Shown piece after piece: positions 14,555 to 33,895 of a stretch of DNA of 64,000 bases. Every line of letters begins with the position of its first letter. Positions within the stretch are counted from its first letter, which is position 1. Position numbers and translations under genes: made by a program. Source of the stretch: Cyanobacteria bacterium P01_D01_bin.156 (lineage in GTDB: Bacteria; Cyanobacteriota; Cyanobacteriia; Phormidesmidales; Phormidesmidaceae); assembly GCA_039024555.1 (NCBI GenBank), contig JBCCQQ010000009.1, positions 1 through 64,000 on the forward strand, read 5' to 3'. Below the pieces are notes generated by a model. That model was not told the origin of the DNA. It was given only the letters and a program-made list of their open reading frames with translations, and did no database searches.

Positions 14555-14675
14555 AGTGATGGCGGCCAGCGATTTTGAGATTCTTTTAAGTCCTTGTTCT
14601 TTTAGGGTAAGTTTTTTTAGGCTACGGTAGAAGTAGGGTTTGAAGAATGTAACGGGCGAGTCCCTCAGTCGTGCA

Positions 14676-15290
14676 ATGGCTTACTCGGTTCCCCACATTT
14701 TGCAATGTTATGCCCAGGGCTATTTTTTAATGGCCGATAGCGACTACCAAACCCTGAATTGGTATTCCAGTTGTCAACGGGCTCTCATTCCATTAGATCA
14801 TCGTTTTCGCTATCCTAAGTCGCTTCGCCGCGTGTTGAATCAGGGGCGATTTGAGGTTGGTTTTAATCGAGATTTTGAGGCTGTGGTTGAGGGCTGTGCA
14901 GCCCGTGAGACCACATGGATATCGGATGAGTTGAAGGCGATCTATCGCATGTTGCATCGGGCAGGCTATGCCCACAGTTTTGAGACCTGGCAAGGGGATC
15001 ATCTGGCTGGCGGTATTTTAGGCATTGTTTTAGGTGGGGCGTTTATCGGGGAGTCGATGTTTTTTAGGATTCCCGATGGTTCGAAAGTAGCGATGGTGAA
15101 ATTAGTAGAGTGGTTGCGATCGCAACATTTCCTTCTATTCGATGCCCAAATGACCAATCCTCACCTGGAACGCTTTGGTGCCTACATCGTTGAAGGCGAA
15201 GTTTACGAAGAGATGCTTTACCAGGCGATTCAACGTCCGTGTCAGTTTCTGCCCTCATCGGCAGCACGTCGTTTTCCAAAAATTACCTAA
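14676..15290 (+). CDS. aat: Leucyl/phenylalanyl-tRNA--protein transferase
   Basis: YAQGYF, TWIS, AHSFETW, FIGESMF and SKVA motifs. Confidence 0.96.
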
Positions 15291-15342
15291 CGACACGTCT
15301 AGTCCGCATCAAGTCAATAAACGGTAGGGTAGCTTAGTCATT

Positions 15343-16128
15343 TTGCCTCTGCCCATGGATGTAATTCCTGATATCAGCCCTGGCTTTATTGGAATCAGTT
15401 TTTTAGCTTCGTTTGTGGCGTGCTTTTTCTCCAGTCTGGCTGGCGGTGGTGCGGGGCTGATTTTGCTACCTATTTTGCTGTTGCTGGGTCTGCCCTTTGT
15501 GAATGCGTTAGCCTGCCACAAGCTTGCCGTTGGCTTTATTGGCATTGGTAGTGGTTACCGGTATACCAAGGCCGGGCTGATTGACTGGCAAATGTTTTGG
15601 TGGACTGGATTAGCGGGGGTGCCCTTCGTCATTTTTGGCACTCGATTTGCGAGCCGTCTGTCTGGTGAAACCATGCGACCAATTTTGGGTGTGGTCATTT
15701 TGGTTATGGTGGTTGCCGCTTTACTCCGCAAAACCGATCATTTAGAACATCGACCTCGCCAGATGTCGTCAAGGCTGTGGTGCATTGCTACGCTATTGCT
15801 GCTGCCCATGGCTTTCTACAGTGGATGGATTACTGCCGGGGCAGGCATTTTTACCACCTATCTTTATTTACGCTTTTTTCGTTACGACCAGCTACATGCC
15901 ACGGCCATGACTCTATCGGCCAATGGCATTTTCTGGAACATGATTGGTGCGGTGTCCCATGTGTTTCTGGGGCATACGGTGTGGACGTTGGCTCCTGGGC
16001 TGGTAAGTGGTGCTTTGCTCGGTAGCTACTGTGGTGCCAGTTTAGGAATCAAAAAGGGCAATCGGTTTTTGCGCATGATCTTTCTGATATCAGCATCGAT
16101 TACAGGGGTACTTTTGTTGCGTCAGTAG
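15343..16128 (+). CDS. TSUP (TauE/SafE) family membrane transporter
   Basis: SLAGGGAGLI..P motif repeated as YSGWITAGAG; multiple transmembrane segments. Confidence 0.88.
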   Translation: MPLPMDVIPDISPGFIGISFLASFVACFFSSLAGGGAGLILLPILLLLGLPFVNALACHKLAVGFIGIGSGYRYTKAGLIDWQMFWWTGLAGVPFVIFGTRFASRLSGETMRPILGVVILVMVVAALLRKTDHLEHRPRQMSSRLWCIATLLLLPMAFYSGWITAGAGIFTTYLYLRFFRYDQLHATAMTLSANGIFWNMIGAVSHVFLGHTVWTLAPGLVSGALLGSYCGASLGIKKGNRFLRMIFLISASITGVLLLRQ

Positions 16129-16537
16129 GGATATTGAAATGCAGTCACTAAGGTAGTTGCATCAGCAACCATTGCAAACACAGGGTATTCTCCCAAATTT
16201 TGATTGGCTTGCTGAATGGCTATTCAGCTGGAAAGTGTTGCTCAGAGTGTCTTCTAAATTGTGAGATGTCGTCGCTAAGTAAATAGGTTAACTATCTCGC
16301 TAGAGGCTAGATTTATACGTTTTTGGCTCATAGTAACGTTAGTTCTATGAGAAATCCCAACACTTGACTGGCAGCTCTTTCTTCTCAGAAAAACATAGAA
16401 ACCATTCGTTAAATTCACTAGATATAGCGCTATAAATCCGTTAATCTTAGAACTCACACTCTACGGCTAGTGGCTACCCCAACGCTTTAAGCCACAAAGT
16501 TAAAGAAGTATACTTGTACTAAAAACGGGCGCTTGCT

Positions 16538-19500
16538 ATGTCCTTTGTCGGTTTGCATATCCATAGCGATTACAGTTTGCTCGACGGAGCCAGCCAGTTG
16601 GAGCCGCTTGCCGCCAAGGCTGTAGAAATGGGTATGCCTGCGATCGCACTCACCGATCACGGTGTCATGTACGGGGCCATTGAACTGATCAAAACCTGTA
16701 AAAAAGCAGGCATTAAGCCCATCATCGGCAACGAAATGTACCTGATCAACGGGGACATCACCAAGCAAGAAAAGCGCCCCCGTTACCACCAGGTCATCCT
16801 GGCCAAAAACAATCAGGGCTACAAAAACCTAGTTAAACTCACCACCAAATCCCACCTAGAAGGCGTCCAAGGTCGCGGCATCTTTTCCCGCCCCTGTATC
16901 AACAAAGACCTACTGGAGGAATATCACGAAGGTCTAATCGTTACCAGTGCCTGTCTTGGCGGCGAAGTACCCCAGGCGATTATGCAAAACCGTCTGGATG
17001 TGGCCTACCGGGTGGCCAAGTGGTACAAAGACCTGTTTGGCGAAGACTATTATCTAGAAATCCAAGATCACGGCTCGCCTGAGGACCGCATTGTAAATGT
17101 GGAAATCGTCCGCATCGCCCGTGAGCTCGATATCAAAATCATTGCTACCAACGACTCCCACTTTATTTCCTGTGTGGATGTGGAAGCCCATGACGCCCTG
17201 CTCTGCATCCAAACCGGTAAGCTCGTCACCGAAGACAAGCGCCTGCGCTACAGCGGTACTGAGTATCTAAAATCTGCTGAAGAAATGCGTCGCCTGTTCC
17301 GCGACCACCTGTCCCAGGATGTGATTGACGAAGCGGTTGCCAACACCCTAGAAGTCGCCGAGAAGGTAGAAGAATATGACATTCTCGGCAATCCACAAAT
17401 TCCTAACTTTCCAGTGCCTGAGGGGCATACGGGCGAAACCTACATGGCGAAGGTTTCCCGCGATGGCTTGCTCGAGCGGCTAGAGCTCGAGTCCTACGAT
17501 GAAGCTCCCCAGGAATATCAAGATCGTCTGGAATACGAGATCCAAATGATGCACCAGATGGGTTTTGCTACCTACTTTCTGGTGGTGTGGGACTACATCA
17601 AGTTTGCTCGAGATAACAAAATTCCAGTGGGGCCAGGTCGAGGCTCGGCGGCGGGGTCCCTCGTTGCTTACTGCATGGGCATTACCAATATCGACCCAGT
17701 ACACCACGGATTACTGTTCGAACGGTTCTTAAACCCCGAACGGAAGTCCATGCCTGACGTGGATACCGACTTCTGCATTGAAAAACGGGAACATGTGATT
17801 GAATATGTCACTGAAAAGTATGGTAAAGATCACGTTGCCCAGATTATTACCTTTAACCGTATGACCTCGAAGGCGGTGCTCAAGGATGTGGCCCGCGTGT
17901 TGGATATTCCCTATGGTGAATCCGACAAGATGGCGAAGATGATCCCGGTGGCGCGGGGTAAGCCTGCCAAGCTCAAGGTGATGATCGACCCGGAGAAAAC
18001 GCCGGAGAAGGCATTTCAGGAAAAATATGCCAGTGGTGATCTGGTGCCGGGAACGGCAGTGACGTACCAGCGCTGGTTGGATATGGCTATCACCATTGAA
18101 GGCACCAACAAGACCTTTGGTATGCATGCGGCAGGAGTGGTGATATCGGCCAAGCCATTGGATGAGCTAGTGCCGCTACAGCGTAATAACGATGGTGCCG
18201 TCATCACCCAGTACTACATGGAAGATGTGGAAGCGGTGGGTTTGCTAAAGATGGACTTTTTGGGTCTGCGTAATCTCACCATGATCCAAAAAGCTGTGGA
18301 TTATGTGGAGCAGACCTGCGGCAAAGTGCTGGATATGGATAAGGTTGCTTATAACGATCCAGAAACTTACAAGCTACTGAGTCGCGGCGAGCTGGGCGGA
18401 GTGTTCCAGCTAGAATCATCGGGGATGCGCCAGATTGTGCGTGATTTAAAGCCCGATGGTCTAGATGATATTTCGTCTGTGCTAGCCCTGTATCGACCTG
18501 GTCCGCTAGATGCTGGGCTGATTCCCAAGTTTATTAACCGTAAACACGGTCGTGAACAGATCGATTATCCTCACGAGCTGATCCAGCCGATTTTAGAAGA
18601 AACCTACGGCATCATGATTTTCCAAGAGCAAATCATGAAAATTGCCCAAGATATGGCCGGATATTCTCTGGGTGAAGCAGACCTGCTGCGGAGGGCCATG
18701 GGTAAGAAAAAGCAGTCAGCCATGGATATGCACCGGGGCAAGTTCATTGAGGGATCTGTGGCTAACGGCGTCCCGAAAAAGACGGTGGAAGCGCTGTGGG
18801 ACCAGATGGTGAACTTTGCGCAGTACTGCTTTAACAAAAGTCATTCCATGGCCTATGGCTATGTGACGTATCAGACAGCCTACCTAAAGGCGAACTATCC
18901 GGTTGAGTACATGGCGGCGCTGCTGACGGCCATCAGCGGCGACCAGGATAAGGTACAGATGCATATCGCTAACTGCGTCAGCATGGGGATTGAGGTGCTG
19001 CCGCCGGATGTGAACCGTTCGGGGGTGGACTTTACGCCGGAGGGGACGAGCATTTTGTTTGGTCTATCGGCGGTGCGGAATGTGGGATTGGGGGCGATTG
19101 AAACGCTGATCCAAAGCCGGGAGGAGGATGGGCCGTTTACGTCATTGCCGGAACTGTGCGATCGCATCGATCTCCGCTCCGTCAACCGCCGCGCCCTAGA
19201 AGCCCTAGTTCATTCTGGAGCCCTAGACAGCCTCAATGACAATCGCCGTCAGCTCAATGCCGACCTAGAATTCGTCGTCGACTGGGCTCAATCCCGCGCC
19301 AAGGATCGCGAAATCGGCCAGGGCAATATCTTTGACATGATGCTAGGTGGGACCGACATCAGCACACCAACGCCCGGAAACGGCAACAATGCCGCCGCCT
19401 ATGAAGCTGCCCCGAAGGCTCCAGCCATGGACGATTACGATCCCCAGGAACGACTACGGCTGGAAAAAGAACTCCTGGGCTTCTACATTTCTGACCATCC

Positions 19501-20086
19501 CCTCAAATCAGTGCAGCGACCTGCCCGTATTTTGGCCCCAATTAGCCTAGGTGAACTGGCGGAGCAGCCTGAAAAACTGACTCTCAGCGCCATTGTTATG
19601 ATCAGCGCTATGAAGCCCATCACCACTAAAAAGGGGGATAGCATGGCGGTCCTTCAAATCGAAGACCTTAGCGGTCAAGCAGAAGCAGTCGTATTTCCCC
19701 GCTCCTATGCCCGTATTGGTATGCACATTAAAGCCGATGCCCGTCTGATGGTCTGGGGTAAGGTAGATCGCCGTGATGATCAGGTGCAATTTATTGTGGA
19801 TGATGCCGAACCCATTGAGGATGTTAAGTTAGTCACCATTGAGCTGCCCCCATCTATTGCTGGGGATATTGTGCAGCAAAATCGTTTGCGCAATGTTATC
19901 CAAAACCAGCAAGGTGAAGATAAGCGGGAGGCACGGGTGCCTGTGGTGGCAATGATTACCCACCAAGGCCATCGTCAAGTGGTTCGTCTTGGAGCGCAGT
20001 TCCGTGTCAAAGACCCGAATGAAGCTGTTTCAGCCCTCAAAGCGGCGGCCTTTAAAGCTGAAGCAGCGCCCCTGGTTACTGCTTAG
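16538..20086 (+). CDS. dnaE: DNA polymerase III alpha subunit, contiguous with no intein
   Basis: PHP motif [20 protein letters not shown], catalytic PDVDTDF, KMDFLGL, YCFNKSH and a C-terminal OB fold; 1182 aa uninterrupted. Confidence 0.99.
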
Positions 20087-28750: not shown

Positions 28751-31700
28751 ATGGCAATTCTTCACGGTAGTTGGCTTCCCGATCAGCGACGGTTTTTTGT
28801 CTGGGCTGAAACCTGGCGCAGGCTGGAAAAGGCGTTACCTGCTGATGGATGTGTTGAAATTCATCCCTACTGTCTAACTGTCACCGAGTTTCAAGCATTG
28901 CCAGCGGACGGTGCTCTGAATTTAGCCCCTTTAGTTGAGCGTTTAAAGTCTAGATGGCATGAACAGGTTTTGGCATTGCCAACTGTAATGGGAGATGGGC
29001 AAATCTATCCGCAACTCGCTGGTCAAACGCAAGAAACGTCAACGAATTCAGAAATTGCCCTTTATCCATGGCGTGTGTCTGGGGTGATGCTGCCTGCGTT
29101 GGCAGCGTTGAATTTTTTGACGAGCCTCCCTCTGGGATCCGAAGCAGGGTTAGTCAGTGGTGATCTCCGCTATTGGTCGCATATGGTTCGGTGGGGATTA
29201 GATTTAATGGCCCGGGGTAAGTTTTTACCGACGGTCAGTGCCGATGGTAGTGGTGCGATCGCAGCATGGCACCTACTCCTTAACAGTGCATTAGATCAAG
29301 GAAGACTACGACAATTTGCAGAGCGTATGCCCTTAGTATGTCGCTTGTATCAGCCAATAGCCAACACAAAGCGTAAAACAGGAACCACTAAGAAGACGAC
29401 CAGAGGCACTAAGTCTAAAGCTAAGACCAAAGATAAAGGCACAGGTAGCGATACATCAGCAATAGCCTTAGCAATTAGTCTGCCAGTTCAAGCCCTGCCA
29501 CTATTGCAAGACTTTCTGGCAAATGTAGTTTCGGCTAAGGTCCGTGATCTGGCACAAGCTCAACCTCTTCCAGCAACAACCCCGTTGAGCAAAGATCTCC
29601 CTCTACGGGAATGGGTTGGTGCATTGATTCAAGATAAAAAGAAACGATTTGAATCTACACCTGCTGGCTTAGTACGGCTCAATGAAGCGCTCCATACTTG
29701 GACAGCGCCGCTCCAAAATCTGACCGCTGACACTTTAGATGCTCTCAATGTCGGCTTTAGATTGATGCCTCCATCGAATGGTCAACTCAATTGGACCTTG
29801 CATTACGGGCTGGAAGCATCGGATGACGAAAACTTTTGTTTGGATGCCCAAACGATTTGGCAGCACCCAGTTGATCAGCTAAATTTTCGTGGTCGTACTG
29901 TAGATGCTCCTCAAGAAAAGCTATTAGCGGGGCTGGGGCGTGCAGCTCGCTTGTGTGAGCCTATTAAACAAACCCTAGATACCTCGGACCCAAGCGTATG
30001 TAATCTGGATCCGATTCAAGCTTTTGAATTTATCAAGGCTACGGCTAGCCGCTTGCAAGACAATGGCTTTGGGGTCACCTTGCCAGAAAATTTAGTCGAT
30101 CCTGGTAAGGCCAGCGCTAGTCGATTAGGTCTCAGTGTCAAGGCGATGGCTCCAACGCGTAAGCAGCAGCGCTTGGGCTTACAGAGTTTACTGAACTTTG
30201 AATGGGAGCTATCGATTGGGGGGCAAAATGTTAGTCAGCAAGAATTTGAGCGATTAATTGCTCAGCAAACTCCCCTGGTAGAAGTCAATGGTCAATGGGT
30301 AGAGCTTCGTCCACAGGATGTCAAAGCCGCTCAATCCTTCTTTAGTAGCCGTAAAACTCAAAATAAGTTATCTGTTGAAGACGTATTACGTATCAGTAGT
30401 GGTGATGGTCAACTGATTGACAAGCTACCTGTGGTGGCGTTTGAAGCATCTGGGAAGCTCGACGACCTGATTACTACGCTAACCACCGGTAATCAGAGCC
30501 TTGAAGAAATAGCCGAACCTGATGGGTTTGAAGGCAAACTCAGGCCTTATCAGGCACGAGGTGTGTCATGGTTATCATTTTTAGAGCAATGGGGGTTAGG
30601 TGCTTGCTTAGCTGATGATATGGGTCTGGGCAAAACTGTCCAGCTGATTGCATTTTTACTCAATCTGAAACAGCAAGATATTTTAGATAAACCAGTATTA
30701 CTTGTGTGTCCAACGTCAGTATTGAGTAACTGGCAGCGAGAAGTAAAACGCTTTGGCCCAGCACTAAAAACCCTGATTTATCACGGTGATAAACGACCGA
30801 AGGGGGCAACGTTTGTAAAACAAGCCCAGAAAATTAACCTGATTATTACCAGCTATACCTTGGTATATCGGGATCTAAAAGAACTCAAAAAAGTTGAATG
30901 GCAGGGGCTGGTATTAGACGAAGCGCAGAATATTAAGAATTCCGATGCTAAACAAGCTAAAGCTGTGCGAGAGTTGGAAAGCGATTTTCGCATTGCCCTA
31001 ACTGGGACGCCGGTTGAAAACCGATTATCTGAGCTGTGGTCCATCATGGACTTTCTCAATCCTAATTATTTAGGACCTAAAAATTTTTTCCAACGCCGTT
31101 TTGCCACACCGATTGAACGCTATGGCGATACCGATTCTCTGCGTACCTTACGAGGACTGGTGCAGCCCTTTGTCCTAAGGCGTCTGAAAACTGACCGTAG
31201 TATTATTCAAGATTTACCTGAAAAGCAGGAAATGACTGTTTTCTGTGGGCTTTCTGCGGAACAAGCGCGTCTCTATCAAAAAGCGGTTGATTCGGCTCTT
31301 GCTGATATTGATGAGGCCGATGGTTTAAAGCGTCGAGGTATGATTCTCGGCTTACTGGTTAAACTGAAGCAAATTTGTAATCATCCAGCCCAGTATCTTA
31401 AGCAGGCATCTTTAGGAAAACAGCGGCGTTCTGCTAAGCTTCAACGTCTTAATGAAATGCTGGAAGAGATTATTTTAGAAGGCGATCGAGCGCTAATTTT
31501 TACCCAGTTTGCTGAGTGGGGGACGCTGCTCCAGACACACTTAAAGGAATATTTGGGAGAAGAGGCTTTGTTTCTGTATGGCAGTACATCTCAGCCTGCA
31601 CGTGACGCGATGGTTGATCGCTTCCAGCATGACCCCAATGGTCCTAAATTATTTATTCTTTCCCTCAAAGCGGGTGGTGTGGGGCTCAATCTGACCCGTG

Positions 31701-32623: not shown

Positions 32624-33895
32624 ATGGATGCAACGTCTTATAAATCCACTACAGATGCTGATTTGGCAGCCCCCAGCTCTGTTGCTTTGGCTACTGCTGA
32701 TCCGAATAAGGATGAGCCTAGCGACACCGATATTAAAATGCTCATTTCCAAGGATGAGGATAGTACTGTAGACAGCTTAGACGTTGAGAAGTTGGCGGTA
32801 GCCCCTGGGCGACGTACTACTGATTTGGTTCGTCTTTACTTACAGGAGATTGGTCGTGTTCGCCTGTTAGAGAGAGATGAGGAGGTTGCGGAAGCCCAGT
32901 TGGTGCAAAGCTACATGAAGCTTTTAGGCCAGCGTAAGGCAGCTGCCGAAGCGAACGATTCTGTTTTGGCCAGTTATGTTTTGATTCTGGAGACACGGGA
33001 TCGCATGACTGCGCAGTTGGGTCATCGTCCATCTTTGGAGCGTCTTGCTAAAGCCTGTGATATTGCTCCAATAGAGCTTAAGCCTTCTTTGCAGTCTGGC
33101 AAGCGCCGTTGGGCTGAGTTGGTTGGAATGTCCGTGCAAGCGTTAGATACGGCTTGTCATGAGGGCATTCGAGCTAAGGAACACATGATTAAAGCGAATC
33201 TGCGCTTGGTCGTGTCTGTTGCGAAAAAGTATCAGAACCGTGGGCTGGAATTACTGGATCTAATCCAGGAAGGCACTCTGGGTTTGGAACGGGCGGTTGA
33301 AAAGTTTGACCCTACGAAGGGCTATCGCTTTAGTACATATGCTTACTGGTGGATTCGTCAGGGCATTACTCGGGCGATCGCAACCCAAAGCCGCACGATA
33401 CGTTTACCAGTTCACATCACCGAAAAACTAAATAAGATCAAAAAAGCTCAGCGGAAAATTTCCCAAACTAAAGGCCGTACTGCGACAGTTGAGGATATTG
33501 CCCGGGAACTGAAAATGACGGCTCCTCAAGTGCGAGAGGTGTTGTTAAAAGTGCCTCGATCTATCTCCTTGGAAACCAAGGTTGGTAAAGAGCGAGATAC
33601 AGAACTGGGCGATTTGCTTGAAACGGATGCCCTATCTCCTGAAGAGCTAGCTGTACGAGATGCTCTGCGTCGGGATTTGCATCAACTTTTGGCAGACCTG
33701 ACTACTCGAGAACAGGAAGTGATTCGGCTGCGGTTTGGCTTAGGAGACGGTGTGCCTTATTCCTTAGCTGAGATTGGTCGTACCTTAGAACTTTCTCGTG
33801 AGCGGGTGCGGCAGATTGAGTCTAAGGCCTTGCAGAAGTTACGCCAGCCTAAGCGACGCAATCGCATCCGTGACTATCTAGAAGCGTTAAGTTAG
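32624..33895 (+). CDS. sigC: Group 2 RNA polymerase sigma factor, SigC-like
   Basis: TDLVRLYLQEIGRVRLL, ANLRLVVSVAKKYQNRG, FSTYAYWWIRQGITRAIA, region 4 SRERVRQIE; start uncertain (32591-32624). Confidence 0.85.
   Translation: MDATSYKSTTDADLAAPSSVALATADPNKDEPSDTDIKMLISKDEDSTVDSLDVEKLAVAPGRRTTDLVRLYLQEIGRVRLLERDEEVAEAQLVQSYMKLLGQRKAAAEANDSVLASYVLILETRDRMTAQLGHRPSLERLAKACDIAPIELKPSLQSGKRRWAELVGMSVQALDTACHEGIRAKEHMIKANLRLVVSVAKKYQNRGLELLDLIQEGTLGLERAVEKFDPTKGYRFSTYAYWWIRQGITRAIATQSRTIRLPVHITEKLNKIKKAQRKISQTKGRTATVEDIARELKMTAPQVREVLLKVPRSISLETKVGKERDTELGDLLETDALSPEELAVRDALRRDLHQLLADLTTREQEVIRLRFGLGDGVPYSLAEIGRTLELSRERVRQIESKALQKLRQPKRRNRIRDYLEALS

Follow-up and report, generated by a model that had tools for sequence, protein, structure and literature searches.

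The highly iterated palindrome HIP1, the octamer GCGATCGC, is flanked by G-rich DNA on its 5' side and C-rich DNA on its 3' side in the draft genome of the cyanobacterium P01_D01_bin.156 (G000; 6.6 Mb, 47% GC, 149 contigs), and this flip is a real, octamer-specific and genome-wide footprint. The window, the whole stretch of 64,000 nucleotides (nt) that was analysed, is G000:C9:1-64000. An earlier note had described compositional flips across HIP1 sites inside single genes of the window and had proposed that the sites are entry points for a strand-polar process. G000 contains 2,558 copies of HIP1, about ten times the fourth-order Markov expectation, of which 1,114 lie in the TGCGATCGCA context, and its DnaE is 93-97% identical to those of named Leptothoe, Adonisia and related records. 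Genes were called with our own script based on open reading frames (ORFs) and dicodons (4,747 genes, 81% coding), which agrees with the ORF list of the window. The flip compares GC skew 5' of a site with that 3' of it, mainly at fourfold-degenerate sites within one gene on the coding strand; random in-gene points, shifted sites, 217 palindromic octamers, twelve one-mismatch octamer classes and 19 other motifs served as controls.

Over all bases, the skew at 20-40 nt is +0.089 before HIP1 and -0.113 after it, and fades over about 1 kb. The all-base flip at 20-300 nt is 0.089, and HIP1 ranks first of the 217 palindromic octamers by delta times the square root of n (median flip -0.0005, standard deviation (SD) 0.020). 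At fourfold sites around the 2,365 in-gene HIP1 sites the skew is +0.165 on the 5' side and -0.368 on the 3' side at 10-30 nt, and +0.012 and -0.229 at 100-200 nt, the values around random in-gene points being -0.117/-0.120 and -0.116/-0.116. The flip over 10-200 nt amounts to 0.303±0.008 (n=2,540 sites), and 1,619 of 2,069 scorable sites lean G-rich 5' and C-rich 3', compared with 1,005 of 2,068 shifted controls. Counting sites over the whole genome removes the worry about windows picked by eye that the earlier note had raised itself, and the meta-plot it had proposed has an antisymmetric fourfold GC skew around HIP1 with no equal effect at control octamers or random points. Its argument that transcription direction does not explain the flip also holds, as the flip is independent of gene strand at fourfold sites and in gene-fixed models. 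An artefact of gene strand or position in the gene is ruled out by the random in-gene points and the gene-fixed models, and local autocorrelation by the palindromic octamers, one-mismatch classes and other motifs.

The full octamer appears to be needed: CGATCG without the outer G/C has a flip of -0.048±0.021 and GATC one of -0.016. The 7-mer half sites ACGATCGC, CCGATCGC and TCGATCGC, which should likewise function under Elhai's proposal of G-meC-directed mismatch repair, have flips of -0.02±0.04, 0.06±0.04 and 0.08±0.05. The 19 other motifs lie between -0.053 and -0.003. The one-mismatch classes range from -0.123 to +0.103, the class at +0.103 being decayed HIP1. The flip strengthens with T/A extension of the octamer (0.130, 0.273 and 0.384), and the bases at positions -1 to -3 are clearly biased (0.66 for T at -1, 0.41 for G at -3). 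One-sided action of asymmetric sites was not found: a T flanking one side makes both arms stronger, and TGAGATCGCA has both arms.

The decay with distance is best fitted by two exponentials (29 nt and 960 nt), only modestly better than by a single exponential or a power law, and the two arms mirror one another when gene and codon-family effects are fitted. With the same effects fitted, base-exchange weights were obtained from 1.26 M synonymous sites (standard error (SE) about 0.02). On the 3' strand at 40-150 nt C gains against T (+0.29), A (+0.27) and G (+0.39), about equally against T and A; G loses against A (-0.13) and T (-0.10), and T versus A stands at -0.03. These weights are mirrored on the 5' side, and GC rises over AT by +0.10 logit on both sides. 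The T/A skew that was to be checked alongside does not flip at fourfold sites more than 40 nt away; within 40 nt T exceeds A on the 3' strand (+0.18) and G drops further, and twofold sites show some T/A flip. Within 30 nt the first and second codon positions share the flip (deltas 0.16 and 0.13), and beyond 100 nt it is limited to silent sites, the effect reaching 500-1500 nt. Dependence on sequence context is strongest for C after C and did not separate the models discussed below.

It is the nearest HIP1 that sets the strength of the skew. Where a second site lies less than 300 nt behind the nearest, the skew at 60-500 nt is 0.133±0.017 versus 0.124-0.133 without one, whereas additive action would predict +0.12 more. 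The slopes are 0.192 on the nearest site and 0.038 on the second, which may help where the nearest is weak (an increase from 0.055 to about 0.12). Of the 59 contigs longer than 40 kb, 57 have two positive arms, and the imbalance of the arms is not related to contig-level skew (rho 0.06, p 0.65). Mean fourfold GC skew varies among these contigs (-0.17 to +0.18, SD 0.084), which suggests fixed replichores in G000.

The skew goes with HIP1 sites found in one lineage, mainly in that lineage. At 25 sites present in G000 only it is 0.167±0.063 in G000 and -0.072±0.069 in the relative (G009/G002), a difference of +0.239±0.081, and at 26 sites present in the relative only it is 0.089±0.132 in G000 and 0.325±0.105 in the relative, a difference of -0.236±0.098; the 83 common sites have 0.365 and 0.367. 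A strand-polar process anchored at HIP1 is supported by a footprint that is mirror-symmetric, octamer-specific, independent of gene strand and follows lineage-specific sites.

Among named dnaE loci with at least five HIP1 sites the flip is positive in 70 of 75, although the loci are related and have orthologous sites in common, and are therefore not independent. In a DnaE tree of 92 rows a single clade of 46 (SH-aLRT 99), made up of Vasconcelosia, Leptothoe, Phormidesmis and relatives, shows a flip at 60-400 nt of at least +0.13 in every row; outside it 8 of the 44 rows with sites reach this value and 15 of the 44 have a negative flip, whereas at 10-60 nt 37 of them are positive. Larger samples of 400 kb each gave flips of 0.40±0.04 (G009) and 0.37±0.04 (G002), and eight genomes of other families (25-67 kb sampled) gave -0.06 to +0.13 at 60-400 nt; the groups in this family comparison were set by eye after the dnaE-locus flips were known, and the DnaE tree is its independent version. 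The kilobase component is strong only in the Leptothoe-Phormidesmis-Vasconcelosia clade, and the component of about 30-60 nt is widespread. G023, one genome only, has 3.4 HIP1 per kb and no flip (0.00±0.06 and 0.06±0.04), and the conserved N4/N6 methyltransferase described below was not found in it. GATC in E. coli K-12 has no flip (435 sites in 100 kb, -0.014±0.026). G025, a single contig that is 93% complete, contains HIP1, yet gave no match to MutL_C, and its MutS frame is short (496 aa); the flip in G025 is 0.12±0.20 and 0.13±0.11 in a small sample. Synechocystis salina and a sister locus (L085, L094) lean the opposite way at 10-60 nt (-0.28±0.39 and -0.39±0.20, few sites).

HIP1 itself decays mainly by C>A change at its methylatable first C. 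Between G009 and G002, 18 of 429 half-sites have a C/A difference at this C, a rate 3.5 times the mean, compared with 0-0.5 times for the other HIP1 positions. G000 has 109 copies of TGAGATCGCA versus 2-21 of each of eleven other one-off decamers; 87 of these 109 changes fall at codon positions 1-2 and are mostly amino-acid-changing, and the relics retain both skewed arms (0.145±0.029 and 0.114±0.031). The pattern hints at N4 rather than C5 methylation in the genus. C>A hypermutation at an N4-methylcytosine (m4C) site is described in Salmonella (bioRxiv 10.1101/2021.01.19.427316; this and the other papers cited by identifier are drawn on for parts of their text). Of 18 genus relatives 17 encode a beta-class N4/N6 methyltransferase, as do 7 of 12 other families; the enzyme was found neither in two HIP1-poor genomes nor in G023. 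In G000 it is a conserved single-copy gene (G000:C2:219177-220142, L258), and its neighbour in G000 and G002 is presumably ffh. Elhai places m4C CGATCG enzymes outside groups A and B (PMC4390886), and the distribution of this candidate fits such an enzyme. The two C5 methyltransferases of G000 are unlikely candidates for the HIP1 enzyme, as both are sporadic, one being present in 3 of 18 genus relatives. A C5 methyltransferase gene and a convergent gene of 175 aa lie at G000:C137:1432-3181 (L250:1360-3109) and recur as a pair in G002 and G004; the methyltransferase occurs in 5 of 31 genomes, the 175-aa gene has no Pfam or PDB match, and the two are likely an undescribed restriction-modification pair.

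MutS (PF01624) is found in 29 and MutL_C (PF08676) in 27 of the 31 genomes, G000 included in both cases, and G000 MutL carries EQHIAHERVIYE and CPHGRP, which we take to be endonuclease motifs. The Vsr endonuclease (PF03852) was found in none of the 31 genomes by a search that did detect the E. coli control, and MutH is reported absent from cyanobacteria (PMC4390886), no search aimed at it having been made here. Loss of exonuclease VII (ExoVII) was ruled out as a source of polarity, the enzyme being present in 67 of 71 genomes of the family.

The footprint most probably stems from a variant form of mismatch repair. More specifically, and with a confidence that stops a little short of an even chance, the skew may be read as the scar of MutS/MutL repair that is nicked at the nearest HIP1, is polar in the 5'-to-3' direction and acts on replication errors and heteroduplex. 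A mismatch, arising as a replication error or in heteroduplex between chromosome copies or with incoming DNA, would recruit MutS, and a nick would be set at the nearest, presumably methylated HIP1. Excision would be more effective 5'-to-3' than 3'-to-5', so that mainly the strand running 3' from HIP1 would be removed and the base on the opposite strand retained. With G-containing mismatches (T:G, G:T, A:G, G:A and G:G) repaired better than C-containing ones (C:A, A:C, C:T, T:C and C:C), C would build up and G would be lost on the excised strand, and repair would act as a weak strand-specific gene-conversion bias. The nick, the methylation of HIP1, the excision polarity and a clade-specific factor are all elements that we infer.

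Every biased exchange keeps C or drops G on the 3' strand, which fits removal of that strand under a repair ranking of G over C, and the signs of all five biased exchanges agree with this hierarchy. Repair in E. coli ranks A:G above C:T and G:T above A:C. In the same organism repair of C:C is very poor and that of G:G and G:T best (PMC3167615), and MutH nicks at the nearest GATC (PMC5416779). Since use of the nearest site and a reach of about 1 kb are features of mismatch repair, and the exchanges fit strand removal, HIP1-directed polar repair is favoured; the decay length of 960 nt matches the fall-off at about 1000 nt in Elhai's proposal of G-meC-directed mismatch repair (PMC4390886). Of the three processes that the earlier note had suggested, nick-initiated excision and resynthesis fits, while exposure of single-stranded DNA or resection, with deamination, is disfavoured because GC is up by +0.10 logit, there is no flip of T versus A, and the gain of C is the same against T as against A. 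In equilibrium models neither deamination on the opposite strand nor C>T change alone can yield the observed base weights, whereas these can arise from protection of C combined with rarer gain of G, or from a conversion-like bias.

Substitution rates were taken from an alignment of G009 and G002 (537,685 nt with 16,922 differences, drawn from 850 kb and 897 kb, loci merged without conflicts) as unpolarised counts, assuming equilibrium and reversibility, and positions less than 300 nt from an unshared HIP1 or close to segment ends were removed. G000 was dropped as an outgroup for polarising them, its fourfold distance to the pair being 0.58, near saturation. Synonymous divergence is flat with distance from HIP1 (gene-normalised observed/expected 0.97-1.06), all-site divergence has no steps at HIP1 and is flat from 3 to 300 nt, and synteny breaks are not in excess there (of 122 block ends, 5 fall within 50 nt, compared with an expected 7.2). 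The rate data lean to a bias in mismatch resolution in both directions.

Several results weigh against HIP1-directed polar repair as set out above. The slope of divergence on HIP1 proximity is predicted to be about -0.13 if repair of replication errors acts alone and about -0.02 for conversion bias, and is +0.118±0.132 within genes and +0.003±0.075 raw (359 genes, gene bootstrap); G/C differences rise near HIP1 (+0.54±0.17 raw, from 252 differences, and +0.72±0.37 within genes). On totals, pure protection is thereby disfavoured by less than 2 SE, and an element that is conversion-like or error-prone is required. Skew is already 0.216±0.060 at the 41 sites by which G009 and G002 differ, compared with 0.309±0.026 at 216 shared ones, and the eleven of the 41 that are absent from G000 have 0.30±0.12. 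Three variable sites could be polarised, all as losses, and young sites without skew were not demonstrated among the 41. The intergenic flip is weaker, at 0.18 for 10-60 nt and about 0.05 for 60-500 nt (0.054±0.012 at 60-200 nt), with a small T/A flip of +0.04 to +0.06; missed short genes and mobile DNA in the intergenic set would dilute the flip and may be part of the explanation. MutS, MutL and ExoVII also occur in lineages without the kilobase component, and a conserved C5 methyltransferase was not found in the genus. Finally, the polarity is assumed rather than explained, as mismatch repair in E. coli is bidirectional and leaves no flip at GATC.

A stronger form of the repair reading, in which HIP1 is the missing strand-discrimination signal of cyanobacteria without MutH, is unlikely. 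Here a nickase would read N4-methylated TGCGATCGCA, excision would proceed only 5'-to-3' from the nearest site, and the strand-specific conversion bias would act on thousands of kilobase-scale tracts and drive the spread of sites against C>A decay; a factor acquired at the base of the Leptothoe-Phormidesmis-Vasconcelosia clade would have lengthened the tract, once tens of bases long, to a kilobase.

Recombination offers an alternative that is doubtful but survives better than the others. Incoming or broken DNA would be cut at HIP1 and recombination would start there, with the donor strand running 3' and mismatch repair rejecting donor bases in G mismatches while passing those in C mismatches, a filtering for which marker effects in pneumococcal transformation are an analogue. 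The same base preferences and a flat total divergence are predicted, and G/C differences do rise near the sites. A methylated HIP1 in a homology arm gives about 100-fold more transformation in PCC 7002, though the effect is independent of AddAB (bioRxiv 10.1101/2024.09.10.611283), and HIP1 abundance correlates with competence genes (PMC13756078). However, tracts from separate sites should add up, whereas the skew is non-additive, and the lack of excess synteny breaks or divergence steps at HIP1 speaks against a start of recombination there.

It is improbable that a HIP1 nick, perhaps made by a methylation-linked nuclease, leads to nick translation or error-prone resynthesis in the 3' direction, from which C-containing errors escape and by which mutation is raised. 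The 29-nt component would suit short-patch resynthesis, and a within-gene comparison has the C-mismatch class raised (T>C +0.26±0.09, G>A +0.22±0.09, G>C +0.96±0.28) and the G-mismatch class near zero on average, both with Poisson errors that are too narrow. Against it, these data become symmetric once genes are not controlled for (C>T -0.33, T>C +0.15), the total slope is 0.003±0.075, all-site divergence is flat from 3 to 300 nt, and non-additivity is not expected under this scheme.

Somewhat less probable still is selection or reverse causation, whereby G-rich 5' and C-rich 3' flanks are favoured by a protein binding or loading at HIP1, and sites arise or survive where such flanks exist. The preferences at positions -1 to -3, the extension of the flip to codon positions 1 and 2 within 30 nt and the skew already present at sites that vary between close relatives all favour it, and it may be more plausible for the first 30 nt around HIP1. 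Against it stand the reach of 500-1500 nt with an effect on silent sites only beyond 100 nt, the one-mismatch octamers that mostly have no flip, and the absence of skew in the relative that has no site.

A break or nick at HIP1 with 5'-to-3' resection, in which C and A of a single-stranded 5' arm deaminate as at human meiotic hotspots, is very improbable and largely refuted: the sign (a G-rich 5' arm), the scale of about 1 kb and some T/A flip at twofold sites and in intergenic DNA fit, but it predicts on the 3' strand a T versus A weight of -0.38 with C versus A about 0, or a lower GC, where T versus A is about 0, C versus A is +0.27, GC is higher and divergence near HIP1 is not clearly raised. 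That HIP1 marks lagging-strand priming or points where replication starts or stops, as the scale of about 1 kb and the quasi-periodic spacing of HIP1 (PMC5861425) might suggest, is extremely improbable, given that both arms are positive in nearly all long contigs with no link to contig skew although the contigs differ in it.

The hypothetical G-meC (HIP1)-directed mismatch repair of Elhai (PMC4390886) resembles the HIP1-directed polar repair favoured here in using HIP1 as the MutS/MutL strand signal, in its reach of about 1000 nt, in requiring a G before the methylated C and in saturating once a site is near. It differs in predicting HIP1 abundance only and in assuming 5-methylcytosine, for which a conserved C5 enzyme was not found here, and the parts of the proposal drawn on make no mention of flanking skew, 5'-to-3' polarity or base preference. 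The Dam/MutHLS system of E. coli shares the use of the nearest methylated palindrome, the long patch and the ranking of G-containing mismatches above C:C, but is bidirectional and has no GATC flip in 100 kb of K-12, compared with 0.30 at HIP1 (PMC5416779, PMC3167615). In that system the strand to be retained is marked by hemimethylation. Human meiotic double-strand break hotspots have a mirror-image asymmetry over 1-2 kb around the site, with C>N and A>N changes on resected single strands and raised rates (PMC7615360), whereas around HIP1 GC is up, the T/A balance stays flat and there is no clear rise in divergence. Skew flips at replication origins, including human CpG islands, are likewise sign changes of strand asymmetry at a point (PMC2817419); HIP1 differs in its thousands of sites per genome, its reach of about 1 kb and its two arms whatever the contig skew. 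The m4C hypermutation of Salmonella likewise produces an excess of C>A at a motif's methylatable C, but acts on the site and not on its flanks (bioRxiv 10.1101/2021.01.19.427316), and m4C at HIP1 is itself something we only infer. Recombination hotspots of the Chi type are oriented, non-palindromic and additive, unlike the palindromic HIP1 with its equal arms and non-additive effect.

No description of HIP1-flanking skew was found in the literature on HIP1, mismatch repair, biased conversion, GATC skew and CGATCG methylomes, a survey that left most subscription journals uncovered, nor by term look-ups in parts of the three main HIP1 papers, and the flip is apparently an unpublished footprint. 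The function of HIP1 has been open for thirty years, and strand choice in bacteria that lack MutH is incompletely understood. The footprint renders the function testable by supplying a direction (the strand 3' of HIP1), a range (about 30 nt and about 1 kb), a nearest-site rule, a base preference and a clade contrast. In these genomes synonymous base choice depends on the distance to the next HIP1, which would bias analyses of codon usage and gene transfer.

Within the window (Table 1), the 60-nt G/C hand counts of the earlier note are all exact (23/7, 10/19, 25/10, 12/20 and 7/19), its coordinates for five HIP1 sites are correct and Pfam agrees with its gene names aat and dnaE. The flips it reported at these sites fared unevenly, being present at fourfold sites for 19158, 29255 and 16640 and weak for 15116 and 33374; in aat the G excess of the hand-counted stretch falls mostly at codon positions 1-2 (16 of 23 G). 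At 150 nt, 15 of 20 HIP1 sites in the window have a 5' skew greater than the 3' skew.

Table 1. HIP1 sites, their arms and host genes in the window; fourfold G:C counts are given as 5' side -> 3' side, or for a single arm.
Feature	Position	Strand	Evidence or fourfold G:C
aat, Leu/Phe-tRNA protein transferase, host gene	14640..15290	+	PF03588, E 3.9e-60
HIP1 (TGCGATCGCA context) within aat	15116..15123	.	16:12 -> 9:9 (300 nt each side), weak
dnaE, DNA polymerase III alpha, 1182 aa, host gene	16538..20086	+	PF07733, PF17657, PF02811
HIP1 (TGCGATCGCA) near dnaE start	16640..16647	.	1:6 -> 6:26 (300 nt each side)
C-rich 3' arm of HIP1 16640	16648..16947	+	6:26
G-rich 5' arm of HIP1 19158	18858..19157	+	37:5
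HIP1 (TGCGATCGCA) within dnaE, clearest flip of the window	19158..19165	.	37:5 -> 5:30
C-rich 3' arm of HIP1 19158	19166..19465	+	5:30
HIP1 (TGCGATCGCA) in SNF2-type helicase gene, flip present	29255..29262	.	Pfam; 19:10 -> 6:12
HIP1 (GGCGATCGCA) in sigma-70 factor gene, no fourfold flip	33374..33381	.	Pfam; 15:10 -> 13:10

DnaE is a single unbroken frame of 1182 aa in the window (16538-20086). The DnaE frames of G002 (L016) and G003 (L018) are 1583 and 1857 aa long owing to long insertions at residue ~767, which are likely inteins, and in several other families DnaE is split around residue ~767.

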